Of a DNA stretch of 64,000 bases, positions 36,151 through 64,000 are shown piece by piece. The notes below the pieces were generated by a model. It was not told the origin of the DNA and did not search any database. It saw only the letters and a program-made list of their open reading frames with translations. The position numbers and the translations under genes are program-made. Every line of letters begins with the position of its first letter. The first letter of the stretch is position 1. The DNA is from an uncultured Eubacteriales bacterium (lineage in GTDB: Bacteria; Bacillota; Clostridia; Christensenellales; DTU072): assembly GCA_949292905.1 (NCBI GenBank), contig CASFAV010000010.1, positions 69,920 to 133,919 on the forward strand, given 5' to 3'.

Positions 36151-36176
36151 AAAAGGAAGCTTCTGGCTTCCTTTTT
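36151..36176. terminator. Bidirectional terminator
   Basis: AAAAGGAAGC-TTCT-GGCTTCCTTTTT between convergent genes. Confidence 0.55.
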
Positions 36177-36191
36177 ATTATATACGGAGAT

Positions 36192-40543: not shown

Positions 40544-40657
40544 ACCGGCGCGACAAGCACGCTCGTCAGGGTTGCGCCGTAGAGGGCGCAAACTTGCGCA
40601 CCCCGCTTGCTGAAGCAAGAAGGGCGCGCTATCTCTCGCCGCCAATTCAAAAAGAGT
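40544..40657. repeat. Structured repeat, copy B (left part + half of the hairpin insert)
   Basis: Aligns with copy A 38454-38552, then continues AATTCAAAAAGAG as in copy C. Confidence 0.8.
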
Positions 40658-40785
40658 CCGTTATGGGCTCCGATCGGCTTTATGTATTTTATTTGCTTTT
40701 CGCGGAGGGTTCACTCGCCCACATCTGTGCTTGTATGAGCGGTTTCGTTTGTTTAAAAGTGCAGAGATTATATTTTCTTTACGTT

Positions 40786-40988
40786 CAGCTCGTCAGGTTT
40801 GCGCCGTAGAACTGCGCAAACTTGCGCACCCCGCTTGCTATCGCAAGAAACGTGCGCTATCCCTCCGCTTCCGCCAATTCAAAAAGAGCCTGTAACTGGC
40901 TCTTTTTGAATTGGCGGCGAGTTATCGCCTTTGTACGAACTTTGAAAGTCAGATAAAGGAGCAGCCTCTTTGGACTGCTTTTCTGTTT
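40786..40988. repeat. Structured repeat, copy C (left part + 20-bp-stem hairpin + right part)
   Basis: Perfect hairpin CCGCCAATTCAAAAAGAGCC-TGTAACT-GGCTCTTTTTGAATTGGCGG (40871-40917) is inserted between the parts that are contiguous in copy A. Overlaps the recombinase 3' end. Confidence 0.8.
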
Positions 40989-45884: not shown

Positions 45885-45906
45885 ATGCTGATGTGAGGAA
45901 ATACAA

Positions 45907-48900: not shown

Positions 48901-49092
48901 GATCAGAAAGTATATGACCGAAACGATATACTCAAAAAAGACGCCTATTTCGAGCAAACCGTCATGTCAGAAATTACGAAAGGTTTGAAAAAACTGGGGC
49001 TTGACAGCAGTCGTGACGACAGAATATTTATTCAGTCGCGCATTGCGGGACAGTATCTTAGCCAGTACAACGCCACATATCCGGCAGCATAA
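45907..49092 (+). CDS. hsdR: Type I restriction enzyme, R subunit
   Basis: HsdR N-terminal nuclease region (VQMPAMIHLSRLGY.., FIEVKKP), helicase motifs HTQGSGKT (motif I) and IIDEAHRG (DEAH), later QAITRVNR. Confidence 0.9.
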   Translation: MNNCIYGKFNEATRVQMPAMIHLSRLGYQYFGKVTEDMAGTVFDPDTNILTQIFVEQFKKLNPLHEGEALQMLKTIRQELDNDDLGRSFYNRLKTVSPVKLIDFENIQNNVFHYTAEFTCRRDQDEFRPDITLFVNGLPLVFIEVKKPNNHGGIVAESERMNSQRFPNKKFRRFINITQLMIFSNNMEYDAAGGIVPIQGAFYCTAARESAPFNCFREENKNNLSVAPYNQNYPYKDVDTELEKKILTDFNCQVIRHTPEYQTNLNINSPTNRVITSMCSPERLLFLLKYGIAYVKMEREVDGKIESVDQKHIMRYQQFFAALAVREKLRQGAKSGVIWHTQGSGKTALSYYLTYVLSDFYAGQNKVAKFYFIVDRLDLLEQASQEFEARGLEVKTANTRAELMAQFRTNQALEGYSGKPEITVVNIQRFAEDTEKVDLPDYATNLQRIFIIDEAHRGYNPKGCFLANLFDADVNSIKIALTGTPLLKEERASWRVFGEYFHTYYYDKSIQDGYTLKIIREDIETSYRERLSQIYERLETLVQKKDLRKSQIIEHESYVHDLLSYIINDLKRFRKIQADDTLGGMIICETSEQARKMYALFDEVQLELNRDDKYKSNFKVGLILHDSDDKEIRKQIVKDFKKNMTVDVLIVFNMLLTGFDAPRLKRLYLGRKLKDHNLLQAITRVNRPYKQNRYGYIIDFADIKQNFEQTNAAYLHELNRFNDPDETGLGCQELDTFSQVIEDKEALIAQMQEVRQILFNYSTDNVEEFSSEISTIEDKEELLRLKKVLTSARDCYNIVRTFGDDELKAAFAKLQIEKLPAMISEVQHHIDNINQKEAFAEEDAIKHAVNEAMLDITFNFSKIGQEELKLASGGEKFHEKWQRTIHAFMDNIDPDDPEYITLHEAFVLRFKEKGFVPETIEEFKEHSRALDEILKKLSELQKRNAVLLKKYNGDAKFARVHKRIREENAIRRTRGQKPIISDFDEAVMEVLSTIKTDVDQKVYDRNDILKKDAYFEQTVMSEITKGLKKLGLDSSRDDRIFIQSRIAGQYLSQYNATYPAA

Positions 49093-49106
49093 TTTAGGAG
49101 TAACAA

Positions 49107-50738
49107 ATGACGATTAAAGAAAAAACGATAGCATTGATCGATGCGCTGAAAGCTACTTGCCAGACATACGGCATGGGCAATGACGGTAACGAATACAAGA
49201 TAATAACGCAAGTGTTTTTGTATAAGTTTATCAACGATAAATTCGGTTATGAAGTCAAGCGAATCAGCCCGAAACTCGCAACCGCCGATAAATGGGAAGA
49301 AACATATTGCCAAATGTCTGAAGAAGAAAGACTCGAGCTTTTCGACGAGCTTGTCGATATTCCTCATCTTTGGCCCGAACACTTAATTTCCACTCTTTGG
49401 AATCAACAGTCAAAGGGCGATTTCGATCTGATATTCGATAGCACAATGACGGACATTGCCGATAAAAACATAGATATTTGGTCAACGCAAACGACGTTGA
49501 ATACCAAAATTCCGCTTTTCGAAAAGCTGACGATATTTGTTACGGATGAGGCCCAGCGCGCTCCTTTTGCAAGGGCTTTGGTAGATAAGCTTGTCAATTT
49601 CTCTTTTGAAGATGCTTTCGCCGAGCATTACGACTTTTTTGCCGCGATTTTCGAATATTTGATCAAAGACTACAATACAGCCGGCGGCGGTAAATACGCA
49701 GAATATTACACCCCGCACGCTATCGCAACGATTATGGCTCGCTTGTTAGTCGGAGAACAGCCCAATCTTCATAATATCGAATGTTACGACCCTTCTGCCG
49801 GAACTGGTACATTACTTATTGCTTTGGCTCATCAAATTGGTGAAGAAAAATGTACTATTTTTGCGCAAGATATATCTCAAAAAAGTAATAAGATGTTGAA
49901 ATTAAATTTAATACTCAATGGTTTAATTTCTTCTCTTGACCATGCAATACAGGGAGATACTTTAACAGATCCGTATCACAAAAGCAATGACAAACAGTAT
50001 TTGCGTCAATTTGATTTTATAGTATCAAATCCTCCTTTTAAGTTGGATTTCCCGGACACACATAAAAAAATAGCGGTGCAAACAGCTCGATTTTGGGCAG
50101 GTGTACCGAAGGTGCCCAAAAAAATTGACCCTAAAAAGCCTAAAATGGCGATTTACACTTGTTTCCTTCAGCATGTTATTAACTCATTAAAACCCGATAT
50201 AGGCAAAGGCGCAATCGTTGTACCTACAGGTTTCTTGACTGCAAAAAATGGTGTTGAATGCAAAATATTAGAAAAAATAGTGGATGAGCACATCGTTTAC
50301 GGTTGTATCAGTATGCCGTCAAATGTTTTTGCCACGACAGGCACCAACGTTTCCGTTTTGTTTTTTGACAATTCGCGCCCCACGGACAAAGTTGTTTTGA
50401 TAGACGCCTCGAAACTCGGTGAAGAGTACAAAGACGGGAACAACCAAAAACGACGTTTGCGTGACGATGAGATAGACAAAATTGTCAACACTTTCTTGAA
50501 CAAAGAAGTTGTTGATGACTTCTCCGTTGCCGTTACTTATGATGAAATAAAGGAGAAAAAATATTCTCTTGCCGCAGGACAATATTTTGACGTTAAAATC
50601 GAATATGTACCTCTCACGCAGGAAGAATTCATTGCCAAAATGAATAAATATACCGAGGATCTTGAAAAGCTTTTTGCCGAAGGCGACAAATTGCAAAAAG
50701 CGATTTTTGAGCAGCTTAAGAAGGTAAAATATGAGTGA
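49107..50738 (+). CDS. hsdM: Type I R-M N6-adenine DNA methyltransferase, M subunit
   Basis: EYYTP, DPSAGTGT (SAM motif I), and VSNPPF (motif IV). Confidence 0.9.
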   Translation: MTIKEKTIALIDALKATCQTYGMGNDGNEYKIITQVFLYKFINDKFGYEVKRISPKLATADKWEETYCQMSEEERLELFDELVDIPHLWPEHLISTLWNQQSKGDFDLIFDSTMTDIADKNIDIWSTQTTLNTKIPLFEKLTIFVTDEAQRAPFARALVDKLVNFSFEDAFAEHYDFFAAIFEYLIKDYNTAGGGKYAEYYTPHAIATIMARLLVGEQPNLHNIECYDPSAGTGTLLIALAHQIGEEKCTIFAQDISQKSNKMLKLNLILNGLISSLDHAIQGDTLTDPYHKSNDKQYLRQFDFIVSNPPFKLDFPDTHKKIAVQTARFWAGVPKVPKKIDPKKPKMAIYTCFLQHVINSLKPDIGKGAIVVPTGFLTAKNGVECKILEKIVDEHIVYGCISMPSNVFATTGTNVSVLFFDNSRPTDKVVLIDASKLGEEYKDGNNQKRRLRDDEIDKIVNTFLNKEVVDDFSVAVTYDEIKEKKYSLAAGQYFDVKIEYVPLTQEEFIAKMNKYTEDLEKLFAEGDKLQKAIFEQLKKVKYE

Positions 50739-51867
50739 CATTATTCTTAATCAAAGTAAATACAACTCGGATTGGGAACCTAAAAAATTATTTGAGTTAG
50801 GAACTTTTTCGAGAGGGATTTCTAAACACAGACCTCGAAACGATAATATTTTATTTGTTGGAGGAGGATACCCTTTTATCCAAACAGGTGATATTCGTAA
50901 GGCGAACTTATTCATTACACATCATGAAGAAGAATATGGAGAGTTAGGACTAAAACAAAGTAAGCTTTGGCCTAAAGGGACATTATGCATCACTATTGCC
51001 GCTAATATTGCAGAAACGGCAATTTTGGCATATCCAATGTGTTTTCCTGATAGCGTTGTTGGTTTTATTGCTAACACTGAATATTCGTCTGAATTATTTA
51101 TGTATTACATTTTTGAATATATAAAATATACAATTAAGACCGCTGCCTCAGGAAGTGCTCAGGATAATATAAATATTGAGTATCTTTCCTCTATAAAGTT
51201 TAGAATTCCGAATAAAACTTATCAAGATAGAATTGTTTCGGTTTTATCTTTTTTGGATAAAAAAATATCGCTAAATAATTTAATAAACGATAATTTAATG
51301 CAAATGGCATCAACTGTGTATATGCACTATTTTTTCAAGCGTACACAAAATGGAAAGCTGGGCAGTGTCTTAGTAGAACATAAAAAGTCAACTATTCAAG
51401 TAGGTGAAGCACAAGAGGCAAGTGGCAATGTGCCTTTTTTCACGAGCGGGGATTCGATTTTGAAATGGGATAACGCTCTTGTTGATGGGAGGTGTTGTTA
51501 TTTAAACACCGGAGGCAATGCCGATGTCAAATTCTATGTTGGCAAAGCAGCTTATTCAACTGATACATGGTGTATATCAGGAAAGGATCAGCTTTCAGAT
51601 TATCTTTTTCTCTTGTTGAATGCTATTAAGCCTGAAATAGACAAAAAATTCTTTCAAGGAACTGGATTAAAACATCTTCAAAAGCCTTTACTGAAAGATC
51701 GGCCAATATATATTCCAACAATAGACGAACTGAGTGCATTTAATGCGCAAATAATGCCTATGATGACGAAAATCTCAGAGAATACAATAGAAAATCAGCA
51801 GTTAATACAATTGCGTGATTGGCTGCTTCCTATGCTTATGAATGGTCAAGCAACTGTTGCGGATTAA
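50731..51867 (+). CDS. hsdS: Type I R-M specificity subunit
   Basis: Two target-recognition halves separated by a conserved helical spacer (..VSVLSFLDKKISLNNLINDNLMQMA.. and ..IENQQLIQLRDWLLPMLMNGQ). 8-nt overlap with hsdM. Confidence 0.85.
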   Translation: MSDIILNQSKYNSDWEPKKLFELGTFSRGISKHRPRNDNILFVGGGYPFIQTGDIRKANLFITHHEEEYGELGLKQSKLWPKGTLCITIAANIAETAILAYPMCFPDSVVGFIANTEYSSELFMYYIFEYIKYTIKTAASGSAQDNINIEYLSSIKFRIPNKTYQDRIVSVLSFLDKKISLNNLINDNLMQMASTVYMHYFFKRTQNGKLGSVLVEHKKSTIQVGEAQEASGNVPFFTSGDSILKWDNALVDGRCCYLNTGGNADVKFYVGKAAYSTDTWCISGKDQLSDYLFLLLNAIKPEIDKKFFQGTGLKHLQKPLLKDRPIYIPTIDELSAFNAQIMPMMTKISENTIENQQLIQLRDWLLPMLMNGQATVAD

Positions 51868-51941
51868 GGTAAGAATATTTATAATAAAAGCATCAGCAAA
51901 ACAATTTATTATATATAAGTGATTAAACTTGTGGAGTGGAA

Positions 51942-53075
51942 ATGGATAATTCTGGTATAATTTCTCAATATGGATTTGAATATCAAAAATTAGCATTTTT
52001 ATATTGTGCTATTCAAATAAATAACACAGATATTATTACATATGAAGGACAAGATGATGTAGACATTGAAGAAGAAAAAACACTTTGGAAATTTCAAACA
52101 CTTAAATCGCTATGCCAAGTAAAAAGTGGAGACGTAACACTCCCCATTTTTAAGAAAATAATATTAAATTGGCTTCTTAAAATGGAGCAAGCTGAACGTT
52201 TTATTTGCATATCAGAAAACATAGTTTTGTTACCTGATGAGTCTTTTATAGAAACTTTCTCTAAAGAAATTATTGAAAGTAACAAGAAAAAAGATGCTTT
52301 AATTAGCAGGGTAAAAGTTAAATATTCGACGCAAAAAAGTACTGATGATTTAAAAGCTGATATAGGAAGATTATTATCAAAAGCAGAGTTTTTGTGTCTG
52401 AATGTTGACACATTAGTAGAAGAATCAATAAAAAAATTTGCTGATGTGTATTGCGCTGATTCTAAATCCGAAGTGATATTCAGGGAACGTTATTTAATGC
52501 TGTATGATAATATTCATAAAAATATTACTCAATCTATATTAAGAAAGGAAAAATATGTTTTACAGTACAGAGATCTTGTTAGAGAGATCTATGCCACTTT
52601 GGAAGCGATAAGCGATTCAAAATATGAGAAATCCTTCACTGAATTCAAGAAGAGATCTTTTTCTACAATGGCAAAAATTTTACACTCTCAATCAGATGCA
52701 GTTAAGCAATTAAAACTTGTATTCCCTCAAGACGAAAAATCAGTCTTACTGGGCTTAACTGAGCAGATGTTTTATGAGGATTTAAGACAACATTTTATCA
52801 GTATAAATATGCAAACAGAAATTAGAGAACTAGAAAATTTGGCAAAGTATAATTATGATAGAACATTGCAAGAGTTTGTAGGATATGGTACTACTCGTAC
52901 TCCATTTGCAACATATCAGAACACTATTGATAAGCCTTTATCAAAACCTTTACCTCCAGAAAATTCGCCAAACTTTCCTTATTATAGGCATGGTTGTTAT
53001 ATACATTTAACAGATACAGATATAGATGAGAATTTGAAAATTAAATGGGGAGAGATAGAAGATGAAACAAATTAA
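51942..53075 (+). CDS. lmuA: Lamassu effector LmuA, Cap4/DUF4297-type nuclease N-terminal domain
   Basis: N-terminal GFEYQ motif, then YEGQDDVDIEEE...CQVKSG (D..E/Q-x-K nuclease layout). Start moved to the ATG 5 nt after GGAG. Confidence 0.7.
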   Translation: MDNSGIISQYGFEYQKLAFLYCAIQINNTDIITYEGQDDVDIEEEKTLWKFQTLKSLCQVKSGDVTLPIFKKIILNWLLKMEQAERFICISENIVLLPDESFIETFSKEIIESNKKKDALISRVKVKYSTQKSTDDLKADIGRLLSKAEFLCLNVDTLVEESIKKFADVYCADSKSEVIFRERYLMLYDNIHKNITQSILRKEKYVLQYRDLVREIYATLEAISDSKYEKSFTEFKKRSFSTMAKILHSQSDAVKQLKLVFPQDEKSVLLGLTEQMFYEDLRQHFISINMQTEIRELENLAKYNYDRTLQEFVGYGTTRTPFATYQNTIDKPLSKPLPPENSPNFPYYRHGCYIHLTDTDIDENLKIKWGEIEDETN

Positions 53076-53484
53076 TTATTTAGATTATGCGCAATACAAT
53101 GAAATAATTTGTCGGCTGATTTATGAGTTCAATATATCTTCCCAAATAAAAGTTATTTTTATTGCTTTTTCCATTAAAAATAACTACCATAATTTAAAAT
53201 CTACAAACCAAAAATATGGTGCATTGGAAATAATCCTAGAGGGAATAAAATTGGGACTTAGGCAAGGCGTTTCTGATTTTACAATTATTTTTGATTGTTT
53301 AGACCTCTTAAAAAAGGGGGGATTTATTTGCGTAAAAAACGGTGTAATAGAACAATTGAAGCCAGCACCTAAGTATAGTAAAGAGCTTGATAGTTTGAAT
53401 GCGCAAATAATACAGAGAGCAATTAATGAAACGGAAAAGCTCAGTGATGATTCAATAATAAGAGGAGTTATAGAATATGTTTAA
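53062..53484 (+). CDS. lmuC: Lamassu middle component LmuC-like (140 aa)
   Basis: Small protein overlapping both neighbours (14 nt and 8 nt). Assignment rests on position between lmuA and lmuB. Confidence 0.5.
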   Translation: MKQINYLDYAQYNEIICRLIYEFNISSQIKVIFIAFSIKNNYHNLKSTNQKYGALEIILEGIKLGLRQGVSDFTIIFDCLDLLKKGGFICVKNGVIEQLKPAPKYSKELDSLNAQIIQRAINETEKLSDDSIIRGVIEYV

Positions 53485-55201
53485 AATTGATTATTTAAAA
53501 GTAAATTATGAGGATAAAACCATAGAACCATCTGTTTATGAGTTTGGAGATTCTGTATATATTTTTGGTCAAAATAACGTAGGAAAAACCATAATGCTGC
53601 AGGCAATAGATTATGTTCTTGGCAAAAGTGGCTTTGTTTTAGAGGATAGAGATGGGCTTGAGAATATTATTTCTCTTGAACTAAAACTTGTTAACGATGG
53701 TCGCACTCTGTTTATATGCAGATCAAAATATAATGATTTTGGATATAAATATTCAGAAGGCGATGCTGCATATTTAACCGTTGATGCTAATATGTATAAG
53801 CAAGAAATAACTTCATTTATCTTGGGAAAAAATTCCAATTATTTTGAAAATTTTAAAATCTATTTAGATGAAGACTTGTCGTTTCGTGCATTTGCTTTTA
53901 TTAACTTTTTGGATGAAAAGGGATTAGGAAATTTAACAAATATTTTCCCTCGCATTTCAACTTATTATAACCAAAAAAGAGCACGTAAACTTATGACATT
54001 TGTTTTTAATTATAAGAATGTCACCAAGCTTATTGAATTAATGAAAGAACAAACTGAACTAATTAAAACGTTGCAAACTCTTAGCGAGCAAAAGGCGACG
54101 TATAATTATTCATTAGCAGTAATTAGAAGAGAATTTAATGAGTTGCAGATACCTTTCAAAACAGAGGATTCGTTGCGAATCTTAAAAGAAGCTTTCGATT
54201 CATACAATAAGGATTTTTACAGAGATACAATCAAAAAAAGACATGCATCGAATGATTTAGGGGTGTTATTAAGGATTTCTTGTTCTTTATCAGAAGAGTT
54301 AAAATTTCAAGAAAATCTGTGGCAACAAACCAAGCTTTTGGACAGCCGAAACGTAAAATCTGATAAATTATTGACCGCTTTTAGAGAGTTGGCCTTGTTG
54401 GATGAGGATTATTCTGTGTATGTAGATGATATTGAAGCTTTAATTAAAAAACAGAAACTATCTCATGATATACTTTCTATAAAAGATTTTGAAAAAACTA
54501 TACGCGAAATTAAAGCCAAAAAAGCAGATATTGATCGGCAAATTGCTGCATGTCAAAAAGGATTAAACAAAGATTCATACGAAAACATACTTAAAGCAAT
54601 TGGAAGAATTGAACAGGCTTTTACCAATATCTCAAGTATACCCGATTTAAATGAGATTATGGTAATAGAAGAGCGTTTAAAACAAATTGAGGGAGAAATA
54701 AATAAGCTACGCAAAGATTTTGATAATACGCTAAAAACAGAATTTGACGAAACCATGCTAATGTTTTACAAAGAACTCGCTAAAGTTAAATTTGTATCAG
54801 AAGATCTTAATCAGAAGAATTTTAAGATTTTGTTTGATCCAATAAAGATTTCTGTTTGTGGCGAAAGATTAAAACCTAATTCGGAAAATATAATCGTGTC
54901 ATATATGCCGGGAAGTATGGCGCGTGAAACGACATGGCAAATTATTGCTTATCTAACAATGTTTAAACTTTTCAAAGAAAAATTTACTGAATTGCCATTA
55001 ATGCCTGTACTCTTTATTGACGGATTGGACCAGCCTTATGATGAGGAAAAAAATAGCTATCCTAATGTTTATAGTTTTATTCGAAATAAAGCGTTAGAAA
55101 TAGGAGTACAGTTATTTGTTGTTTCAACTCGTGATGGAAAGCCTATTGGAATTAAAGATCAATTGCATATTACAGGTTTTAATAAAACCTATAAGAGATA
55201 G
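53477..55201 (+). CDS. lmuB: Lamassu SMC/ABC-like ATPase LmuB (DUF3732-type)
   Basis: N-terminal Walker A GQNNVGKT followed by AIDYVLGKS, a long central coiled-coil-like region, and C-terminal Walker-B-like VLFIDGLDQPYD. Confidence 0.75.
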   Translation: MFKIDYLKVNYEDKTIEPSVYEFGDSVYIFGQNNVGKTIMLQAIDYVLGKSGFVLEDRDGLENIISLELKLVNDGRTLFICRSKYNDFGYKYSEGDAAYLTVDANMYKQEITSFILGKNSNYFENFKIYLDEDLSFRAFAFINFLDEKGLGNLTNIFPRISTYYNQKRARKLMTFVFNYKNVTKLIELMKEQTELIKTLQTLSEQKATYNYSLAVIRREFNELQIPFKTEDSLRILKEAFDSYNKDFYRDTIKKRHASNDLGVLLRISCSLSEELKFQENLWQQTKLLDSRNVKSDKLLTAFRELALLDEDYSVYVDDIEALIKKQKLSHDILSIKDFEKTIREIKAKKADIDRQIAACQKGLNKDSYENILKAIGRIEQAFTNISSIPDLNEIMVIEERLKQIEGEINKLRKDFDNTLKTEFDETMLMFYKELAKVKFVSEDLNQKNFKILFDPIKISVCGERLKPNSENIIVSYMPGSMARETTWQIIAYLTMFKLFKEKFTELPLMPVLFIDGLDQPYDEEKNSYPNVYSFIRNKALEIGVQLFVVSTRDGKPIGIKDQLHITGFNKTYKR

Positions 55202-55331
55202 AATAAAAAGATAAATATATGCTCAATTAATACATAATGGAAAAAAGGTAAGCGTCAAAAATCATGTGCTTATTATAGTTGAGTCCATATAATTATATTT
55301 TTCACTGTCTGTAAACTTGCACAGTCAGCCC

Positions 55332-55361
55332 TTGACTTCGGGGGCTGGCTTTTGCTATAAT
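55332..55361 (+). promoter_or_regulatory. Candidate sigma-70 promoter of the LexA-like repressor gene
   Basis: TTGACT, 18 nt spacer, TATAAT. The -35 is embedded in the terminator-like hairpin that follows lmuB. Confidence 0.5.
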
Positions 55362-55372: not shown

Positions 55373-55393
55373 AACGAAACGCAATGTTTTGTT
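55373..55393 (+). promoter_or_regulatory. Candidate operator just downstream of the -10
   Basis: Imperfect palindrome AACGAAAC-GCAAT-GTTTTGTT (7 of 8 positions complementary). Confidence 0.3.
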
Positions 55394-55413
55394 TATGTGC
55401 CAGAGGTGATAAA

Positions 55414-56010
55414 ATGAGAGTGTTGAACTCGGATACGCTTGAAAAAGTGGCTCAGTATAATATTAATTATCAAAGGGAACACGGGAGAACACCGAGTTTC
55501 AGAGAAATCATGCACGCTCTTAACCTTGGCTCTCTTGCAACCGTTCAAAGATATGTGAGAGCGCTGCAAAAATCAGACCGTTTGGAGCTGACAAGCGCAG
55601 GGAATATTTCCCCCCTACCGCAACTTGACGGTGGAGCGAGGACGGTCGTACCGCTGATTGGTGAAATTGCTTGTGGCGAACCCATTTTTGCCGTTGAGAA
55701 TATCGAGGAAAGCTATGCTTTTCCGAAAGCGTTGTTCGGTGACGGGGAACTGTTTATGCTTCGGGCAAAAGGCAACAGCATGATAGATGCAGGGATAAAT
55801 AAAGGCGATCTGGTGGTATTACGCAGACAAACTACTGCCGATGACGGCGAAATAGTTGCTGCCCTGATAGACGGTGAAGCAACTCTTAAAAGGTTGTTCC
55901 ATCGTGACGGTAAAATTGTTCTCCACCCTGAAAATAAGCGGATGAAAGATATTGTTCTTGATAGTTGCGACGTTCAGGGTGTGTTGGTAAGCTGTATAAA
56001 AATGTATTGA
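55414..56010 (+). CDS. LexA-like S24-peptidase repressor (198 aa)
   Basis: N-terminal wHTH. VPLIGEIACGEP aligns with LexA LPLVGRVAAGEP. Catalytic Ser in KGNSM and Lys in ATLKRL. Start moved to the ATG after AGAGGTG. Confidence 0.85.
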   Translation: MRVLNSDTLEKVAQYNINYQREHGRTPSFREIMHALNLGSLATVQRYVRALQKSDRLELTSAGNISPLPQLDGGARTVVPLIGEIACGEPIFAVENIEESYAFPKALFGDGELFMLRAKGNSMIDAGINKGDLVVLRRQTTADDGEIVAALIDGEATLKRLFHRDGKIVLHPENKRMKDIVLDSCDVQGVLVSCIKMY

Positions 56011-56135: not shown

Positions 56136-56330
56136 ATGCAAAACACATGGAAGCCGACGAAACGTCTGTGTACAAACTGCGGGCAAGCGATTATCGGGTA
56201 CAGGAACGATAAAGGATTGGTTAAGTTACAGTGTCCGAAATGCGGGCTTGTAATGGTAAGCAAAAGAATGAGCCGACGGCACGAGCGGATAGATATTACT
56301 CCTCCGCCGGGCGAATACATTGATAATTAA
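56136..56330 (+). CDS. Small four-Cys zinc-ribbon protein (64 aa)
   Basis: CTNCG...CPKCG pairs. AAGGAGGG RBS 10 nt upstream. Confidence 0.6.
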   Translation: MQNTWKPTKRLCTNCGQAIIGYRNDKGLVKLQCPKCGLVMVSKRMSRRHERIDITPPPGEYIDN

Positions 56331-56443: not shown

Positions 56444-56496
56444 GCCCCGACAGATAGATTTCCTTATAGCGGAAGTCTGTTTGTCGGGGCTTTTTT
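56444..56496 (+). terminator. Rho-independent terminator
   Basis: GCCCCGACA...TGTCGGGGC followed by TTTTTT. Confidence 0.6.
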
Positions 56497-56607: not shown

Positions 56608-56949
56608 GTGAATGTCAACGAGAGGCGCAAAGCGATATTGGAAGTTCTTTGCGCTCGCCGGCACGAAACAAGAGAGAATCTTGCGTTCGAGTTCGGTGTA
56701 AGCAAACGCACAATTGAATATGACGTGCTGAGCCTCTCGTTGGAGTACCCGGTTTACACTTCGCAAGGAAACGGAGGCGGTATACACGTCGTGGACGGTT
56801 TCAAGCTCGATATGAAGTATCTGTCGGATAAGCAATGTGCTTTGCTTGAAAAATTGGCGGCAAATCTTTCGGGCGAAGACGCCGAGGTCATGGCTTCCAT
56901 CATCAAAACATTCGCTTTGCCGAAAAAACAGGAGGAAAAACCGATATGA
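56608..56949 (+). CDS. HTH-domain transcriptional regulator (113 aa)
   Basis: GTG start 7 nt after AAAGGAGGTG. RRKAILEVL....ETRENLAFEFGVSKRTIEYDV is a winged-helix/HTH_11-like N-terminus. Confidence 0.65.
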   Translation: MNVNERRKAILEVLCARRHETRENLAFEFGVSKRTIEYDVLSLSLEYPVYTSQGNGGGIHVVDGFKLDMKYLSDKQCALLEKLAANLSGEDAEVMASIIKTFALPKKQEEKPI

Positions 56950-57275
56950 CAATGAAGCAAATCCAGATAGACCTTCAAGAGATCCGTTACTACTATGCGC
57001 GTAAGGATATGTTCGACAAAGCGTGTGATTCCGTTGTAAAAAACACCATCGTCGAAAAGGTCGGTAAGTATAACGAGGTAATGCACGATGCCCCTCCGCG
57101 ATTGTACGCATTATACGTTGCTCTTTATACCGAAAACAACACGCAGATCGTCGTTGCGGATGACTGGGGAGTATCGGAAGGATACATTAAAAATCTGAAC
57201 AGAAAACTGCGGGATTACTTACTTGCGGTATTCAACAAAAATCATAAGGAGAGTGATAGCAATGACAACGTGTAA
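56946..57275 (+). CDS. Small sigma-70 region-4-like HTH protein (109 aa)
   Basis: ATGA overlap with the upstream gene. C-terminal ..VADDWGVSEGYIKNLNRKLRDYL.. resembles a region-4 HTH. Confidence 0.5.
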   Translation: MTMKQIQIDLQEIRYYYARKDMFDKACDSVVKNTIVEKVGKYNEVMHDAPPRLYALYVALYTENNTQIVVADDWGVSEGYIKNLNRKLRDYLLAVFNKNHKESDSNDNV

Positions 57276-57510
57276 ACAGAGTTTTGCAAAGGGCGCAACC
57301 AATGTCTACAGGACGGAGAACTATATCGTCAAGCAGGTTTTCGGGATTCAACTCGACAACAAACTCGGCAACGTGACGATGAGTTACGACACCTATTATC
57401 TTCGTACTCCGGAATTGGATGCAATCTACGAGTATATGTTTTCCGACAGAAAAAACATTGACGGAAAGCGACTCCATACCACGATGTATGTTCGTACCTA
57501 CATCGAATGA
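57262..57510 (+). CDS. Hypothetical protein (82 aa)
   Basis: ATG 9 nt after AAGGAG. Overlaps the upstream gene by 14 nt. Confidence 0.45.
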   Translation: MTTCKQSFAKGATNVYRTENYIVKQVFGIQLDNKLGNVTMSYDTYYLRTPELDAIYEYMFSDRKNIDGKRLHTTMYVRTYIE

Positions 57511-57703: not shown

Positions 57704-57967
57704 GTGGCAGAAAAAAGCAGTAAGTACAACAAACGTCGTTGGTCCGTGCCCTCGAAAAGAGCAAAGGGATATGCGGCAGACAGAAAAGCAAAGGTACATA
57801 CCTACGGACCTAAGGAAGGCAAGGAACTGACCGACTACGAAGCCGGTATGCGTTCGGGTTATTTGCAGTGCCAGACCGACCACGCAGGTATCTACAAGTA
57901 CAAGAAAGCAATTTCCGAAGGAAAGAGCAAGGCAGAAGCGAAAGCCATTTCGCAGAAAAAAGGATAA
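57704..57967 (+). CDS. Small Lys-rich basic protein (87 aa)
   Basis: GTG start after AGGAGG. K/R-rich throughout. Confidence 0.5.
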   Translation: MAEKSSKYNKRRWSVPSKRAKGYAADRKAKVHTYGPKEGKELTDYEAGMRSGYLQCQTDHAGIYKYKKAISEGKSKAEAKAISQKKG

Positions 57968-57985
57968 ACAGGAGGATTTCAGATA

Positions 57986-58342
57986 ATGGCAAAGAACAAC
58001 CAAAACAATCAGATTTTCGTCGAAAGAGAGACGTTTGAGAAGAACGGCAGAACTTTCTTCTCGTACTTTATCAAAGGCAATATCCGCGGCAAGGACGTCA
58101 AGGTAGCCGTCGTTCCGCCCGACAAAGGCGGCTATACCGTACTCGACATCGTGTTCGGCGATCAGATGGCAGCCGAGCTCGTCGCAAAGCCTTTCGAGAT
58201 CAAGGACGAAGCGACCGGTAAAATCATTGCCGGCAACACCTATTCCGTGCAGACCGTGGACGAGGACGGCGAAATCTACGAATGTGCCGTCAAGCCTTAC
58301 AGAAGCTCGGATAAATCGCTTCTCAACATGCTTTTGAGGTAA
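57986..58342 (+). CDS. Hypothetical 118-aa soluble protein (beta-rich; possible OB-like DNA-binding protein)
   Basis: AGGAGG RBS. No motif recognised; the functional guess is weak. Confidence 0.55.
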   Translation: MAKNNQNNQIFVERETFEKNGRTFFSYFIKGNIRGKDVKVAVVPPDKGGYTVLDIVFGDQMAAELVAKPFEIKDEATGKIIAGNTYSVQTVDEDGEIYECAVKPYRSSDKSLLNMLLR

Positions 58343-58413
58343 AGAAGCAATTTGTTTCAGCTGCGGCTTGTTGGTTATAGCCGCAGTTGAAAACTACAAT
58401 TCAGGAGGTAAAA

Positions 58414-59469
58414 ATGTATAACGAACTTAATAAACACAAAAAATCAGATTCTATCAAATGGGTAACCGTATTCGTCGCTATAGTTCTCCTTTTCGCGGGA
58501 GTTGTTGCGGCGCTTGTTCCTGTTTACGGACAGAAAACCGATAAAGAAACAGATACTACCGAAGCCTTGGCGGCAGAAGATTTCAGTATAGAAATGATTT
58601 CTTCGGAAGGCATAAGGCTTGCAAGCGGACCTATGATGGCGAGTGCCGGAGGGCAGAGCGTAAGTAAAACCTTAACGGCGTCCGTTACTCCTTCGTCTGC
58701 CCAGAACAAAGCGGTTGACTGGAGCGTGAAGTGGGCTGAATCCGGCAAGAGCGAAGCTGTCAGCGAATACGTGACCGTAACGCCTCAGTCCGACGGAGCG
58801 CTTACCGCAACGGTGACCTGTTATAAGGCGTTTGAGGGAGAGATACTCGTAACCGTCACAACCCGTGAAGGCGGACTTAAAGCGGAATGTATAGTTACTT
58901 TCATAGGCATACCGTCCTCACTTTCTATAAACGGCAGTAACGCTCAAAGCAATGCTAATATCGGCAGTTATTACAAAATCGGAGCAGGAAACGATTACTC
59001 TTTCAATATTGTGCCTTCCAACGTATTCGGTCAGGTAGGAGCGGAATGTAATTACAAGGTAACGGTTAAAGGGGTAGGTGAGATAGCCACGCAGATGTGG
59101 TCGGTCACATATAATTCCTGGAACGGTTCTCTTATCGACGACTCCGACGAAGTTATTGTCGATATAAGTACGATTACGCAGATAAACAGCGAAACGCCCG
59201 GGTTTTTCTTCGATTGCAGCATAAGCGGAAGCACGCTTACCATTCACGGCAATTCTTCTCTTGAAAGCTATTACGGCGGCACGCATGTGGGAAGCGATCC
59301 TCGTTCGGGAACTTTTCAGGATAATAAATTCAAGCATTACGTCGATGATAACTGGTACTTCGAGGTGAAAGTTACCGAAACGAACAGCGGAATATCGAAT
59401 ACTATCAAAGTACGTCCCTATCTTACCGTAAATAATGTATCCTTGAGCGCCAACAATATCTCTTTTTAA
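58414..59469 (+). CDS. N-terminally membrane-anchored protein with Ig-like (Big_2-type) ectodomain
   Basis: Start moved to the ATG after AGGAGG. TM segment WVTVFVAIVLLFAGVVAALV. The segment TLTASVTPSSAQNKAVDWSV...ECIVTF is Big_2-like. Confidence 0.6.
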   Translation: MYNELNKHKKSDSIKWVTVFVAIVLLFAGVVAALVPVYGQKTDKETDTTEALAAEDFSIEMISSEGIRLASGPMMASAGGQSVSKTLTASVTPSSAQNKAVDWSVKWAESGKSEAVSEYVTVTPQSDGALTATVTCYKAFEGEILVTVTTREGGLKAECIVTFIGIPSSLSINGSNAQSNANIGSYYKIGAGNDYSFNIVPSNVFGQVGAECNYKVTVKGVGEIATQMWSVTYNSWNGSLIDDSDEVIVDISTITQINSETPGFFFDCSISGSTLTIHGNSSLESYYGGTHVGSDPRSGTFQDNKFKHYVDDNWYFEVKVTETNSGISNTIKVRPYLTVNNVSLSANNISF

Positions 59470-59493
59470 CAGAAGAGTTAAAGGAGGTGCGAT

Positions 59494-60093
59494 ATGAGCT
59501 TAAATCAGAAAAAGACAACGATATATAAGATAATATCCGTAATATTGATATTGCTCGCAGTCGCAGGCGCGGCAGGATTCATCGCTATGTTCACCAACGG
59601 TTTTACCGAGGAATTCAAGTCTTTTTACATAGAAACGAACGGTGAAAAATTATTGCAGACCGAAACGAATCGAGTATTCGCTTGCGGAGAGGAACAGCGG
59701 TTTGACGTCAAATACACTTTTTCGGATTTAACCAAAGACAAACCCTCGGGATATACCGTGAAAGTTGTTCCTAACGAAGAAACCGATTTCGATTTTACCG
59801 TGGACGGAGAAGTGTATTCTTATGCGGCGGTAACGGATTTAACGGCGGCGTTCGATATTGTGAAATATGACGAATATTTTACGCTGACCTTATCCGACGG
59901 AATGAGCATACAATCGGTTCTCGGTAGCTTGTATCCGGATAAGAACGTTCAGGTGACAACCGATGTGAAAGACGAATATCCGTACACTCTTTTGATTTCA
60001 TCCTACAACGGGAAGGTAACGTACCGAATCAATTTTAATAACTATCATTATGCTGAAGGAATTACTCTCGATAAGGGGGTGATGGTGTTTTGA
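59494..60093 (+). CDS. N-terminally membrane-anchored protein (199 aa)
   Basis: AAGGAGG RBS. TM segment IISVILILLAVAGAAGFIAMF. Beta-rich ectodomain ending ..GITLDKGVMVF, similar to the end of the upstream protein. Confidence 0.6.
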   Translation: MSLNQKKTTIYKIISVILILLAVAGAAGFIAMFTNGFTEEFKSFYIETNGEKLLQTETNRVFACGEEQRFDVKYTFSDLTKDKPSGYTVKVVPNEETDFDFTVDGEVYSYAAVTDLTAAFDIVKYDEYFTLTLSDGMSIQSVLGSLYPDKNVQVTTDVKDEYPYTLLISSYNGKVTYRINFNNYHYAEGITLDKGVMVF

Positions 60094-62105
60094 GAACGGC
60101 GGTTAAGGTAAAAGCTTTGTCTTTGCTTATCGCCATAGTAATTATGTTCGGCGTCGTCACTACGGCGGCGCCGAATATCGCTTATGCGGAGGAAGCGTTG
60201 AACTTTGATACCACCAATGTTCTGGACGATCTGAAATCTTCGTCCGACGGCGGTGAGGCATTCGATCTCAACGACTATCCTTTCGACGAAAGCAAAGACA
60301 TTCAGGTCATCAATTTCGTGGAGTATTGCTATTCGTACAAAGCGAATATGCGCGGAAACTACGGGTTGTACGTGTACGTTTACAATCCGAAAGGTCTGAA
60401 CCTTTCCACGAGCAGCAAGAGCAATAAGATACAAATGGCGTCCTCTTATGACGCAGACGGTAACCCAAACGACTATGTGAAGTTTGACTTGCAGTTTTTG
60501 AGTAAGTCCGAGGACAGCAACTATAAAAACCTGTTTTACAAGTTCAAGGTGGTTGATAAAGAGGTAAACGGAACGACCTTTGCAGACCGTGTGAACAGTA
60601 ACGAAAGAAGGTACGACGTTTCCGGAATCGAGCTTATGACTTACGGCGCCAACAACGCAACCGAGTATGCGGTCAACGGAACATTTAAGTTTACGGGCTA
60701 TTCGCAAGGCTACGGCCCCGACGCTTCGGCTAAGAGTACGCTCATAAGTACCGTGGAATACCTCGAAACGATAACGCTGGACGTCAAGCACACGTTTTAC
60801 CGTACAAAGACTTCCATTAAGGGCGCGGGTTATCAAAACCAGCTCGACACGGTATATTTTGCCGTTCCGCAAAGGTTCTTCGATACATACGGCAGACTGC
60901 AACGCATCAAGGCTGAATGGTACGAGTACAAGACCAATGATATCGTCGTGACGAGCAATCAGGATTTTTACAATCAAGCGTCCTCTTATGTCGGCAAGCA
61001 CGTCGGATACGATTATTACGATTCCGTGCTTTCTCTCGGACAACAGGCAGGTGACGGCGGTGGCGGAGTTATGGTCGCAAAATGGGGTTGGAACCTCGGC
61101 ACGAATTATCTGCACGTCCCCTGCGAAACGCTGTATTACCTTTTCAAGGTAAACAATATCGAGGAGTACGATCCCTATGCGGATATCGTGTCTATCGGCG
61201 GCGTGGAAAGCAATGCTTTGTACGAATATATCAAAAATTACAACAAGACATTCGACAAAGGCACGTTGCCGATAAAAGACGGAACGATCAGCGCGGATTT
61301 GTTCGCCGACGATATTGACGATTACCGCAAAATGGATACGGAATTCGGCAAAATACAGAAAGGCTATTCGTATTACGACTTTGACGCGGACGTCGATTTG
61401 CAAAAGCTGACGAGCTGGCAGGAAGGTAATCCGTCGTTCTGGGATAATTGGCTAAACTGGGGGCTGTGGGATACTATATTCGGTAAGATTCCTGAAGAAG
61501 AAAGCCGCACGATTTCGCCTATTTATACCCTGAAAGCGAGCGATCTGAACGGAAGCGACGAAGAAATTGCCGAACGCCTGCTCATCAACGCGGCAGACGT
61601 ACCCGCTCTGAAAAGCTATTACAACGACGCCGTAACGGTAAGCGGCAAGGACGATGAAGAAAAGGTTGTCGTATTGTTCCGATTTGCCACGAGCGATTAT
61701 TATTCCGCGGCAGTAGACATAATGGAACTGAGAACCATTCTGCCCGACAAACACACGAGCGGACAGGCGTATCGTGCTTGGGAAAGCGTGTTTATGGACT
61801 TTGACATTATCCAGCTTACGTTCAACCGTGACGGGGTGTACAAAGTCATACCCGTTGTTTCAAGTCCTATGGATATCGTCAATTCGATTACTCCGCCCGT
61901 GCAGATGCCGGACGATGGCGAGTGGTGGAAAATCCTGCTGGCGGTTTTGCTGATTATCCTTTTGATAATCATACTGTTCCCCGTATTGCCGTGGATCATC
62001 AAAGGACTGTTCTGGATTATCTCGTTGCCGTTCAAGGCGATTGCCGCGCTGTTCAAGAGTATCGACAAGGCAAAGAAAAAGCGAAGTGAGAAAAAGGAGG
62101 AATGA
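60090..62105 (+). CDS. Secreted 671-aa protein with cleavable signal peptide and C-terminal double TM anchor
   Basis: TTG start overlapping the upstream stop. Signal peptide ending AYA-EE. C-terminal WWKILLAVLLIILLIIILFPVLPWIIKGLFWIISLPF followed by a Lys-rich tail. Confidence 0.7.
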   Translation: MRTAVKVKALSLLIAIVIMFGVVTTAAPNIAYAEEALNFDTTNVLDDLKSSSDGGEAFDLNDYPFDESKDIQVINFVEYCYSYKANMRGNYGLYVYVYNPKGLNLSTSSKSNKIQMASSYDADGNPNDYVKFDLQFLSKSEDSNYKNLFYKFKVVDKEVNGTTFADRVNSNERRYDVSGIELMTYGANNATEYAVNGTFKFTGYSQGYGPDASAKSTLISTVEYLETITLDVKHTFYRTKTSIKGAGYQNQLDTVYFAVPQRFFDTYGRLQRIKAEWYEYKTNDIVVTSNQDFYNQASSYVGKHVGYDYYDSVLSLGQQAGDGGGGVMVAKWGWNLGTNYLHVPCETLYYLFKVNNIEEYDPYADIVSIGGVESNALYEYIKNYNKTFDKGTLPIKDGTISADLFADDIDDYRKMDTEFGKIQKGYSYYDFDADVDLQKLTSWQEGNPSFWDNWLNWGLWDTIFGKIPEEESRTISPIYTLKASDLNGSDEEIAERLLINAADVPALKSYYNDAVTVSGKDDEEKVVVLFRFATSDYYSAAVDIMELRTILPDKHTSGQAYRAWESVFMDFDIIQLTFNRDGVYKVIPVVSSPMDIVNSITPPVQMPDDGEWWKILLAVLLIILLIIILFPVLPWIIKGLFWIISLPFKAIAALFKSIDKAKKKRSEKKEE

Positions 62106-62108
62106 CAA

Positions 62109-62243
62109 ATGAAAACGGTTAAGAGAATACTTGCCGTATGCCTCTTAATCGTTGCCGTTCTGGTCGTCGGCTATCTCGTCTATACGGGTAGCCGATTGAC
62201 CGACGGTCAAGCGATTATCTCTCAGGTAGGAGGTGTATTATGA
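62109..62243 (+). CDS. 44-aa single-TM protein (below the ORF-track cutoff)
   Basis: MKTVKRILAVCLLIVAVLVVGYLVY... Its TGA overlaps the next ATG (ATGA), and GGAGG for the next gene lies inside it. Confidence 0.45.
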   Translation: MKTVKRILAVCLLIVAVLVVGYLVYTGSRLTDGQAIISQVGGVL

Positions 62244-64000
62244 ACAGACGAAATGCAGTCAATATCGTATTTTCGGCAATCGTGTCGGTAGGCTTTGTCC
62301 TTCTCGGCATATTCGTCTTTTCGCCCTCTTATCTCAGAGCGTTCGAGGCAGGCGGCAACCTGATAGATTCGATCAAGTTTTATTTCTGCGAACTTTTCGG
62401 CACTGCGCACAATACCGCTCCCGCCGTAAATGCTTGGTCGGAAGTTATGAAGTGGGATATCTTGCTCCCTTCGGACTTTGATACGTTCAAGGTTTCGGCG
62501 ACAAGGTTTTTTGAACTCCTTGTAGACAAGGAAAATTTCATCGGCTATTGGTCGGTGGTCGGAGATAAATCGGCGGTTGCGGCAAAGGTGATTGCGATTG
62601 CTCTCCCTTGCGTGCTCGTATTCGTCTTTGCGTTGAAACGGCTCTATGCAAGCGGGAACACAAAGCACAACAAAGATACGCTACCGCTCAAAGCGTTCAA
62701 ATCGGTATCCTGTGCTACATATCAGCCCGTAAAACGGTTCGTGCTCGGCTATATCGATTTTCTGAAACACACGAATTGGCTGTGGATATGCTGGCTTGTA
62801 CTGTGGGCGTTCCATCTCAATCTCGTAAGTATCGTATTGGGCTTCTTTGCCTATTACTTTTACTTTTCGGTGTCCTTCGACGTCGCGTCTATTTATACGC
62901 AGGTATGCAAGCTGTTTATCGACTTGCAGGTCATCTTCCGACACTTCCCGTGGTGGAGTATTGCCATAATTGCGTGGCTCATCTTCAACCGATGGAGAAA
63001 GTCAATCGCCTTGAATAGACTGCGGCATTTCGAAGCCCGTAATTGCGGGTTTATCAACGAAGTACCCATCGTGTCTATCTCTTGCGGAAGTATGGGAAAG
63101 AAAAAGACGACGCTCATTACGGATATGACTCTCTCGCAGGAAGTTATGTTCCGGCAAAAGGCATACGACATTCTGAAAAACAACGATATGAAATTCCCCA
63201 TGTTCCCGTGGATCGCCTTCGAGGACGAGTTAAGGCTCTGTATGGAACACGGCACCGTGTACAATCTTGCAACGGTCAAGGAATGGGTGTCTTTGAAACG
63301 GCGAAGGTTCGAGCGTCACGGCAGAACGGACCTGCAATTATACGGCTACGATATTTGCCGTTACGGTCAGACCTTTAACGACGGGCTGAAAGTCAGTACG
63401 CTGTTCGAAGTGTTGGAAACGTATGCTCAGGCGTATTTCATCTACATTATCGAAAGCAGCCTTATCGTGTCGAACTATTCTATCCGCGAGGACAACGAAC
63501 TTGTAAGCGAAGGCAATTTTCCCATCTGGGCGTCCGATTTCTTCCCCGAAGGGGTCACCGAAGGCAGACACGCGCATATCCTCGATTTCGACGTGTTGAG
63601 GCTCGGCAAAAAGGTCATAGAGAATAACCCGAAGGCGGGCAGCTTTGAATTCGGCGTTGTGGCGATTTCGGAGATAGGAAAAGAGCGCGGCAATAATCTG
63701 GAACTTAAAGAAGTCAAGAAAGGTACGGAAGAAACCAACCAGAAGAACGACTTGTTCAATGCGTGGCTCAAAATGTGCAGGCACTCGGCAACGGTGGATA
63801 ATTTCCCGTTTATAAAAGTCTTTACGGACGAACAGCGGCCCGAAAGCTGGGGTGCCGACGCAAGAGATCTGTGCGACATAATCCATATTGTGCAATCGGG
63901 AGAGCAACGACTTGCGCTTCCGTTCTACACGATAGAAGAAATGATAAGCGAATGGACGTTCAACCGGTTCATTGCCATGTATTACGATTTCCGTTTCCGC
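62240..64000 (+). CDS. Polytopic membrane protein with C-terminal P-loop-like NTPase region; 3'-truncated by the window end
   Basis: Hand translation gives 587 codons with no stop in frame to 64000, which is why it is absent from the ORF track. About 5 hydrophobic segments in the first ~260 aa, then CGSMGKKKTT (deviant Walker A) and IKVFTDEQ (hhhhDE Walker-B-like). Confidence 0.7.
   Translation, partial: MNRRNAVNIVFSAIVSVGFVLLGIFVFSPSYLRAFEAGGNLIDSIKFYFCELFGTAHNTAPAVNAWSEVMKWDILLPSDFDTFKVSATRFFELLVDKENFIGYWSVVGDKSAVAAKVIAIALPCVLVFVFALKRLYASGNTKHNKDTLPLKAFKSVSCATYQPVKRFVLGYIDFLKHTNWLWICWLVLWAFHLNLVSIVLGFFAYYFYFSVSFDVASIYTQVCKLFIDLQVIFRHFPWWSIAIIAWLIFNRWRKSIALNRLRHFEARNCGFINEVPIVSISCGSMGKKKTTLITDMTLSQEVMFRQKAYDILKNNDMKFPMFPWIAFEDELRLCMEHGTVYNLATVKEWVSLKRRRFERHGRTDLQLYGYDICRYGQTFNDGLKVSTLFEVLETYAQAYFIYIIESSLIVSNYSIREDNELVSEGNFPIWASDFFPEGVTEGRHAHILDFDVLRLGKKVIENNPKAGSFEFGVVAISEIGKERGNNLELKEVKKGTEETNQKNDLFNAWLKMCRHSATVDNFPFIKVFTDEQRPESWGADARDLCDIIHIVQSGEQRLALPFYTIEEMISEWTFNRFIAMYYDFRFR

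Follow-up and report, generated by a model that had tools for sequence, protein, structure and literature searches.

A conserved membrane-protein and P-loop ATPase module at the core of a common integrative rolling-circle element of gut Christensenellales

The order Tubulavirales (Inoviridae and Plectroviridae), including the inoviruses of Gram-positive gut bacteria, is the comparison group for the locus described here (Roux et al., 2019, PMC6813254; PMC10061712), and such gut inoviruses, found in Enterocloster, carry Zot-like genes (PMC10061712). The locus is an integrated element in a 64,000-nucleotide stretch of DNA, referred to as the window, from an uncultured Eubacteriales bacterium of the Christensenellales (GenBank assembly GCA_949292905.1, contig CASFAV010000010.1, positions 69,920 to 133,919). 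It resembles the Tubulavirales in its small integrative genome, variable integrases, non-lytic gene set and SOS-linked control, in a replication initiator (Rep) of the gII/ORF2 family (PF23343), and in the order of Rep, small soluble proteins, a large protein with a signal peptide and a C-terminal anchor, a tiny transmembrane (TM) protein and a membrane NTPase. Long hairpins in non-coding DNA beside Rep and the presence of several copies per host genome are further likenesses. In phage Ff the genes run gII, gV, coat, gIII, gVI, gI, an order that the element parallels.

Pleolipoviridae and Plasmaviridae have in common with the element a small circular or integrated replicon (with a Rep for rolling-circle replication, RCR, in the alphapleolipoviruses), the lack of a capsid gene and non-lytic release. 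The plasmavirus L2, an Acholeplasma phage, is likewise integrative, measures 12 kb and encodes a 738-aa envelope protein, and the succession in HRPV-1 of a membrane protein, a spike with a signal peptide and a C-terminal TM segment, a tiny open reading frame (ORF), a putative NTPase and Rep parallels the element as an analogy of order only. Actinomycete integrative and conjugative elements (AICEs) share with it an integrase, an RCR-type Rep, a repressor, a single membrane-anchored ATPase of the additional strand, conserved glutamate (ASCE) type, small membrane proteins and a size of ~10-25 kb, and vesicle-borne plasmids such as pR1SE are a further comparable system. Only the Rep of the element belongs to a known family, and what defines each of the systems compared is missing from it. 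By analogy, it would be a small, integrating RCR element equipped with a membrane-based module for export, functionally closest to Tubulavirales and to elements of the pleolipovirus/plasmavirus type.

The genes that a preliminary description of the window had flagged as a tightly packed membrane-protein module form the conserved core of a mobile element that is very common in gut Christensenellales. For the analysis of gene order, 167 loci were fetched from genomes and metagenomes, and the order is fixed: an integrase on the reverse strand, optionally a WYL-domain regulator, a LexA-like repressor, a Zn-ribbon protein, an HTH_11 regulator, a small regulator, o95, the basic protein K87, the soluble protein s118, one to three Ig-like proteins, the large secreted protein sp671, a tiny TM ORF, the ATPase and Rep. 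K87, s118, sp671 and the ATPase follow one another in this way in all 81 loci that have all four, and Rep lies after the ATPase in 121 of 127, a conservation far beyond chance; the same gene order, which the preliminary description had suggested looking for in other genomes, is found in more than 100 public loci. The integrase varies in type, being a serine recombinase here and a tyrosine recombinase elsewhere. Two copies with a tyrosine integrase in different genomes (L031 and L037) have exactly 12.2 kb in common, and a serine recombinase on the reverse strand is followed directly by WYL and LexA-like genes on the forward strand in three other loci (L095, L098, L100). The basal element is ~12 kb long, and the window copy reaches ~25 kb because type I restriction-modification (R-M) and Lamassu-like systems have been inserted.

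In a second sub-family (L076 and L069), the module of Ig-like protein, sp671 and ATPase is joined to other integrases and to a different Rep, which is CRESS-like (Rep_OBD and SF3 helicase) and lies upstream; the Ig-like protein Ig199 of the window belongs to the minimal module common to this sub-family. Judged from these comparisons, the minimal mobile module consists of an anchored ectodomain protein, sp671 and the ATPase, with a small hydrophobic ORF, mostly of 32-65 aa, separating sp671 from the ATPase in 106 of 109 loci; like the modules of viruses and plasmids, it recombines with modules for replication and integration. The L069 copy (L069:111-13794) additionally encodes a GDSL/SGNH hydrolase and a Flg_new-repeat surface protein.

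The ATPase family comprises at least 2,984 clusters at 90% identity and 988 clusters at 50% identity, and the 150 listed of these 988 are mostly 700-800 aa long; all named members are called 'hypothetical protein'. The hosts are gut metagenome-assembled genomes (MAGs) labelled Christensenellaceae/Christensenella, Candidatus Borkfalkia, Candidatus Scatosoma, Pumilibacteraceae and Candidatus Coproplasma, as well as one Anaeroplasmataceae, and the guts sampled are those of humans, ruminants, rabbits, chickens and mice. A genome can have up to three diverged copies, the number found in one MAG. Searches with tblastn gave no match in a plasmid collection and, among phages, one unverified and unannotated 57-kb INPHARED record, while IMG/VR gave 0 matches with the single protein and 2 contigs with the profile, both of them long. 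Such near-absence from viral collections would also be expected where no hallmark gene is part of any marker set and ssDNA is under-sampled. One of the 167 loci is a circular contig (L076; 13,154 bp with a 141-bp terminal overlap, giving a circle of ~13.0 kb), the ATPase of which is 45% identical. A literature search found no description of the element. The copy in the Anaeroplasmataceae MAG (L080:6446-14300) directly adjoins an S10 ribosomal-protein operon; its s118-like and K87-like genes are swapped, and its sp protein is only 447 aa long and has no variable middle.

The module runs past the right edge of the window, as had been stated. A contig of 7,409 bp (L001), found by exact-product look-up, is 100% identical to window 58111-64000 (5,890 bp) and reaches 1,519 bp further; it contains the complete 708-aa P-loop protein and, directly after it, a 349-aa HUH rolling-circle Rep. 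This Rep matches PF23343 (REP_ORF2-G2P, the type of inovirus gII and plectrovirus ORF2) with 43.9 bits against a cut-off of 27.8, has visible HUH (HFHGIFH) and tyrosine (YIMKYI) motifs, and gives a weak PHROG match to 'rolling circle DNA replication initiation'. Classical capsid, tail or type IV secretion system (T4SS) genes, which the preliminary description had named as evidence that would speak against its view, were found neither downstream nor by profile search, and an inovirus/plectrovirus-type Rep is present instead. Among close relatives located in different genomic contexts, similarity ceases ~215 bp past the Rep stop codon, which is where the element ends.

The non-coding tail after Rep, folded as single-stranded DNA (ssDNA), is predicted to form two long hairpins with a minimum free energy (MFE) of -67.8 kcal/mol (z = -9.0). 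From 121 distinct post-Rep sequences that were folded (median MFE -62.8), 70 loci are shown, and most of these have the two-hairpin architecture. The 13-bp stem of the second hairpin, GCGTGTGCTTGTC/GACAAGCACACGC, is invariant in 27 diverse loci whose proteins are only about 60% identical, the four base pairs under it show compensatory double changes in 6-14 sequences, and its exact 3' arm is located 150-238 bp past the Rep stop in 76 of 126 loci. A region of this kind resembles an RCR origin, a signal for packaging or priming of single strands, or both, and it is a candidate nick site.

In the ATPase model predicted by AlphaFold2 (AF2; pLDDT 92, pTM 0.88), residues 1-274 make up a helical membrane domain at the N-terminus, and a cytoplasmic NTPase domain of the ASCE type follows. 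The P-loop noticed earlier in this protein is borne out, and about four TM helices, instead of the five first counted, precede it by hydropathy. Across 76 diverse homologues the Walker A consensus is GxMGxGKTT, with K289 invariant and T290 nearly so; E478, which follows a beta-strand, and R533 are also invariant, and D530 nearly so. E478 looks like a Walker B residue, and the motif DxQR (530-533) is a candidate sensor or arginine finger. The window protein has no match in Pfam or PHROGs at E <= 1, and neither do diverse members of the family (5 in Pfam at E <= 0.1, 16 in PHROGs at E <= 1). Searches of PDB sequences with the single protein and with the family profile gave none either; in the PDB sequence searches for the ATPase, s118 and K87 taken together, the one match, to ATPTB1 (E = 0.0076), covers a short helical stretch and was taken as chance. 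Foldseek comparison of the model with the PDB returned nothing with E < 0.1, the best neighbours being STIV2 B204 (E = 0.19, TM-score 0.33) and HerA, which at E values of 0.19-0.5 are not significant, and FtsK was not among the matches. In BFVD there was one match, the unnamed 269-aa viral protein A0A894JLK1 (E = 1.5e-4, target TM-score 0.54), and no protein named Zot or pI appeared among the 50 listed BFVD neighbours.

The module ORFs were taken from an ORF listing and a translation of the window, and those of the preliminary description are all present on the forward strand (Table 1). GGAGG-type ribosome-binding sites stand before nearly all of them and three pairs of ends overlap by 4 nt (the HTH_11 gene with the small regulator, Ig199 with sp671, and tm44 with the ATPase, to which tm44 is translationally coupled), so the strong sites and abutting ends reported before are real. 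All products are membrane proteins except the two small soluble ones; the protein described before as lysine-rich is the basic K87, and the single TM segment of tm44 stands by hydropathy. Two anchored proteins with Ig-like ectodomains had been proposed: hydropathy supports an N-terminal TM segment in both (residues 26-44 of the 360-aa ORF in the first), a recognisable Ig stretch is seen in the first only and is weak (Big_2-like; PHROG Ig-domain match 7e-4, Pfam 0.21), and the similarity claimed for their C-terminal ends finds no support on comparison (BLASTP E = 5). The first of them most likely starts at ATG 58414 (351 aa), because the GGAGG site serves this codon, and an independent gene call on L001 likewise gives 351 aa. 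In sp671 the signal-peptide-like N-terminus and one C-terminal TM helix hold; the second C-terminal helix, counted before as part of a double anchor, has a hydropathy of only 1.76 and may be amphipathic rather than a second TM segment.

K87 is the best-conserved protein of the module, with 2,417 clusters at 90% identity, none of them named. It found no match among PDB sequences, either as a single protein or as a family profile, and it is proposed to be a DNA-binding or condensing protein. The soluble s118, which has no PDB sequence or Pfam match, occupies the position equivalent to that of a gV-type ssDNA-binding protein, with an hhalign probability of 0.5% against M13 gVp; we infer that it is a candidate ssDNA-binding or chaperone protein. 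The first Ig-like protein is fast-evolving and has 1-3 paralogues in relatives. Both termini of sp671 are conserved and its middle is variable (1,438 clusters); its AF2 model (pLDDT 82.6, pTM 0.79) is rich in beta structure and places a long C-terminal helix after a TM helix. No PDB neighbour was found for it by Foldseek with E < 0.06, the best being generic tandem beta-sandwiches (arrestin, SdrG, Fabs) with a probability <= 0.1, and a function as adsorption or spike protein is proposed. The basic end of tm44 is N-terminal, and the peptide has no homology to known coat proteins. Scans of Pfam, PHROGs and NCBIfam gave nothing informative for any of the seven module products. Median identity is 78% for K87, 68% for the ATPase and 35-48% for the exposed proteins, and this pattern, high in the basic protein and the ATPase, low in exposed proteins and with a variable middle in sp671, looks virion-like.

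With regard to known systems, no capsid, terminase, portal, tail, relaxase, VirB4, VirD4, Zot or FtsK domain was detected in the module by Pfam, PHROGs and NCBIfam, which agree with the earlier failure to see terminase, portal, capsid, tail, relaxase, VirB4 or coupling-protein motifs, and none of the copies examined has capsid, terminase, tail, T4SS, relaxase, Zot, FtsK or lysis genes. Neither the window module nor the related loci contain the VirB4, VirD4/TcpA coupling protein or MOB relaxase of T4SS-based integrative conjugative or mobilizable elements, and of the terminase, portal, HK97 capsid and tail genes of a Caudoviricetes prophage PHROGs and Pfam show none, the weak Ig-domain match being the sole structural one. 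The pI/Zot ATPase (PF05707) that marks the Tubulavirales was not found in the ATPase family with Pfam and PHROGs, nor was the FtsK_SpoIIIE translocase of the AICEs with Pfam, NCBIfam and, using the ATPase family profile, PDB sequences. Alignment by hhalign of the family profiles with L2 ORF1 and ORF13 and with HRPV-1 VP4, ORF7 and VP8 gave probabilities <= 1.2% and nothing beyond the P-loop.

The element differs from the Tubulavirales in an ATPase that has no Zot/pI domain or fold match and in which a polytopic domain of ~274 aa at the N-terminus takes the place of one TM segment after the ATPase, in the lack of a recognisable gV-like or gVIII-like homologue, and in its extra Ig-like anchored proteins and 12-25 kb genome; the charge polarity of its tiny TM peptide is reversed relative to inovirus coat proteins. 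No HRPV spike structure is among the PDB neighbours of sp671, and unlike the hosts of pleolipoviruses and plasmaviruses, most hosts of the element are walled Clostridia, with one copy in Anaeroplasmataceae. AICEs belong to another phylum, have another Rep family and possess the FtsK_SpoIIIE domain, whereas the element encodes a conserved basic protein and a large protein both secreted and anchored, neither of which AICEs have. In structure the ATPase domain comes closest, if weakly, to the class of STIV2 B204 and PRD1 P9, membrane-associated DNA translocases of the FtsK-HerA superfamily, but the element has no jelly-roll capsid gene and its length variation argues against an icosahedral shell. 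An icosahedral membrane-containing virus of the PM2 or sphaerolipovirus type, prompted by the B204 match, was considered and rejected: length varies two-fold and there is no jelly-roll candidate, since the proteins rich in beta structure have N-terminal anchors and a variable number of paralogues, and a Big_2-like Ig stretch is present in one of them.

The reading favoured here, given a chance somewhat below even, is that of a temperate, non-lytic, membrane-assembled, non-tailed virus-like element, filamentous or pleomorphic, SOS-inducible and replicating by the rolling-circle mode. On DNA damage the LexA-like repressor would cleave itself, the small HTH and sigma-like regulators would turn on the rightward operon, and the serine recombinase would cut out a circle, which Rep would nick at the conserved hairpin region just 3' of its own gene to produce single strands. 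K87 and s118 would bind the DNA, and the 708-aa membrane ATPase, with the coupled tm44, would drive it across or into the membrane; during this export tm44, the Ig-like proteins and sp671 would be taken up as coat or spike, and a non-tailed filamentous or pleomorphic particle would leave without lysis. The observations from which this scheme departs are gene content, conservation, Rep family, hairpins, topology predictions, P-loop conservation and element borders; each functional step, and the existence of particles, we infer from them.

Support for the virus-like reading is circumstantial and consists of the Rep family, the hairpins, the membrane gene set with a basic protein, the conservation pattern, the tolerance of length, the absence of lysis, capsid and T4SS genes, and the gene order; the circular 13.0-kb relative and the up to three diverged copies per genome were also counted in its favour. 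Elements of ~12 kb and ~25 kb both occur, which fits filamentous or pleomorphic packaging and not an icosahedral capsid. Several points weigh against it: no module protein resembles the virion or morphogenesis proteins of inoviruses, plasmavirus L2 or HRPV-1 in sequence or fold, the ATPase does not resemble Zot, the family, very common in gut metagenomes, is hardly represented in viral collections, and a circular form is seen in only 1 of 167 loci. Moreover, the N-terminal position of the basic end of tm44 is the reverse of that in known inovirus coat proteins, and most hosts are walled, yet the window copy encodes no wall hydrolase. The first choice of the preliminary description, the morphogenesis module of a non-tailed temperate virus-like element, stays the best reading, although no protein is homologous to a known virion or morphogenesis protein and viral collections hardly contain the family; the unfamiliar transfer apparatus that it had listed may be an alternative.

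The gene classes present (integrase, RCR Rep, repressor, one polytopic P-loop ATPase and several small membrane proteins) would also fit a minimal AICE-like conjugative element, in which the ATPase would pump excised, RCR-replicated DNA into a touching cell and the Ig-like proteins and sp671 would be adhesins, mating-pair or exclusion factors. The weak best neighbours of the ATPase in the FtsK-HerA pump superfamily (B204, HerA), the presence of the adhesin SdrG and of MG-domain proteins among the weak top neighbours of sp671, the Flg_new surface-repeat protein and GDSL hydrolase of the L069 variant, and the rarity of the family in viral collections all point in this direction. Conjugation of this kind, the main rival of the virus-like reading, is nevertheless considered less likely: no FtsK_SpoIIIE, TraB, VirD4, VirB4 or relaxase domain is present and FtsK is missing from the Foldseek matches, the Rep is of the ssDNA-phage family PF23343, K87, s118 and the tiny TM peptide are left without a role, and sp671 evolves fast in a receptor-binding-like pattern that is more often seen in viruses.

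Least likely, and very doubtful, is a non-self-mobile integrative RCR plasmid-like element whose module serves the host (surface decoration, exclusion, non-DNA export) or which exploits a helper phage or ICE like a satellite: recognisable transfer or virion machinery is indeed lacking, most copies are chromosomal and the defence cargo is of benefit to the host, but no other part of the element is as conserved or as strictly syntenic as the module, which travels with different Reps and integrases and therefore performs an essential function of the element itself, the occurrence of common, multi-copy elements in several families implies efficient horizontal spread, and helper genes are not consistently associated in the flanks examined. 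The surface-protein cargo that had been listed as an alternative is likewise disfavoured, because the module is the conserved core and the true cargo (R-M and Lamassu-like systems) sits elsewhere.

If the virus-like reading is followed further, the element may tentatively be regarded, as possible rather than probable, as a high-rank lineage, so far unrecognised, of temperate viruses that infect Gram-positive gut bacteria and have no capsid. Their virions, filamentous or vesicle-like, would be put together at the membrane by a new polytopic ATPase unrelated to Zot/pI, with a 10-kDa basic nucleoprotein and a ~32-65-aa TM peptide as structural components, and the viruses would be abundant in the guts of humans and animals but missed by detection tools, as no marker set includes a hallmark gene of theirs. 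Should particles form, they would represent a new assembly machine among the few non-tailed virus architectures and expose a blind spot in virome annotation; if the element is a pump-driven transfer element instead, no AICE-like system would have been known outside Actinomycetes before it. Whichever applies, the 708-aa ATPase and sp671 are large, well-folding families without a Pfam model or structural neighbour, and the element also carries anti-phage defence cargo. Among gut taxa, Christensenellales rank with the most heritable and health-associated, and to our knowledge no phage of this order has been isolated.

Table 1. Coordinates of the element's features (window positions unless a locus is named).
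Feature	Position	Strand	Remarks
Left-end (att-type) region	40561-40902	.	two copies of a ~110-bp unit: 40561-40670, 40788-40902
Large serine recombinase (integrase)	40879-42435	-	Pfam Resolvase + Recombinase + Zn_ribbon_recom; PHROG integrase 5e-106
WYL-domain regulator	43104-44105	+	Pfam WYL 2e-12 + HTH_11; adjoins LexA-like gene in L003, L007
Low-GC cargo (~11 kb)	44109-55201	+	GC 0.28-0.41 vs 0.45-0.48 in core; PADLOC + Pfam matches
Cargo: DUF4365 protein and type I R-M	hsdR 45907-49092, hsdM 49107-50738, hsdS 50731-51867	+	complete R-M
Cargo: Lamassu-like trio	51936-53075, 53062-53484, 53477-55201	+	last is an LmuB-like SMC ATPase
LexA-like S24 autoprotease repressor	55384-56010	+	Peptidase_S24 1.2e-32; TIGR00498 lexA 154.9 bits vs cut-off 110.95
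Zn-ribbon protein	56136-56330	+	conserved in relatives
HTH_11 regulator	56608-56949	+	Pfam HTH_11
Small regulator (109 aa)	56946-57275	+	sigma-r4 likeness faint
o95 (82-95 aa, function unassigned)	57223-57510	+	conserved; 72 loci; median identity 49%
K87 (87 aa, basic, soluble)	57704-57967	+	pI 9.9; 22 K+R; median identity 78%
s118 (118 aa, soluble, apparently beta-rich)	57986-58342	+	median identity 67%
First Ig-like anchored surface protein	58414-59469 (ORF opens 58387)	+	median identity 35%
Second anchored ectodomain protein, Ig199 (199 aa)	59494-60093	+	TM 13-31; homologues in L076, L081
sp671 (671 aa)	60090-62105	+	signal peptide, beta-sandwich-rich ectodomain, C-terminal TM + basic tail
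tm44 (44-aa single-TM micro-protein)	62109-62243	+	core MKTxKR + TM + YTG
Polytopic P-loop ATPase	62240-64000, running off window	+	587 of 708 aa inside window
Two-hairpin region	L005:13205-13440, ~1.5-1.7 kb past window end		directly after Rep; L001:7339-7409 covers first 71 bp

Host ABC-transporter genes end at 40465, and from this and the downstream end it follows that the window copy stretches from ~40.5 kb to ~1.7 kb past the window, roughly 25 kb. The two ~110-bp copies at the left end share 84-96% identity, and the recombinase gene reaches with its 3' end into the second. The sequence GACAAGCACGCTC (40552-40564) stands before the first copy, with two mismatches against the invariant right-end hairpin arm of related elements; together with the duplication it may be a relic attP-type junction of an older or tandem copy. 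A palindrome with 23-nt arms at 40871-40917 looks like a bidirectional terminator. The cargo is missing from relatives whose WYL gene abuts the LexA-like gene, and its site therefore looks like an accessory-gene hotspot.

In the regulatory arm, a strong promoter-like site (55332-55361; 11 of 12 positions, with an extended -10 TG) lies upstream of the LexA-like gene and overlaps a 12-bp hairpin (region 55323-55361), and a terminator-like hairpin with a 20-bp stem (56444-56490) separates the Zn-ribbon and HTH_11 genes; the two suggest that the arm is made up of two transcription units. The lysogeny-like set reported upstream of the module is retained as to its LexA-like, Zn-ribbon and HTH_11 members, while the sigma-r4 likeness of the fourth is faint, with no significant match in the window copy and a weak one in a homologous locus.

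Outside the element, the host flank at 30813-38389 encodes a member of the 8xMP octameric membrane-protein family, a large GNAT-type acyltransferase, an NlpC/P60 hydrolase and a Flg_new-repeat surface protein, and GC falls to 0.39 at 30-32 kb of the window. A tmRNA gene with the tag peptide DEQSYQYAAA is located at 9380-9724, a long way from the element, and has no relation to the site of integration.

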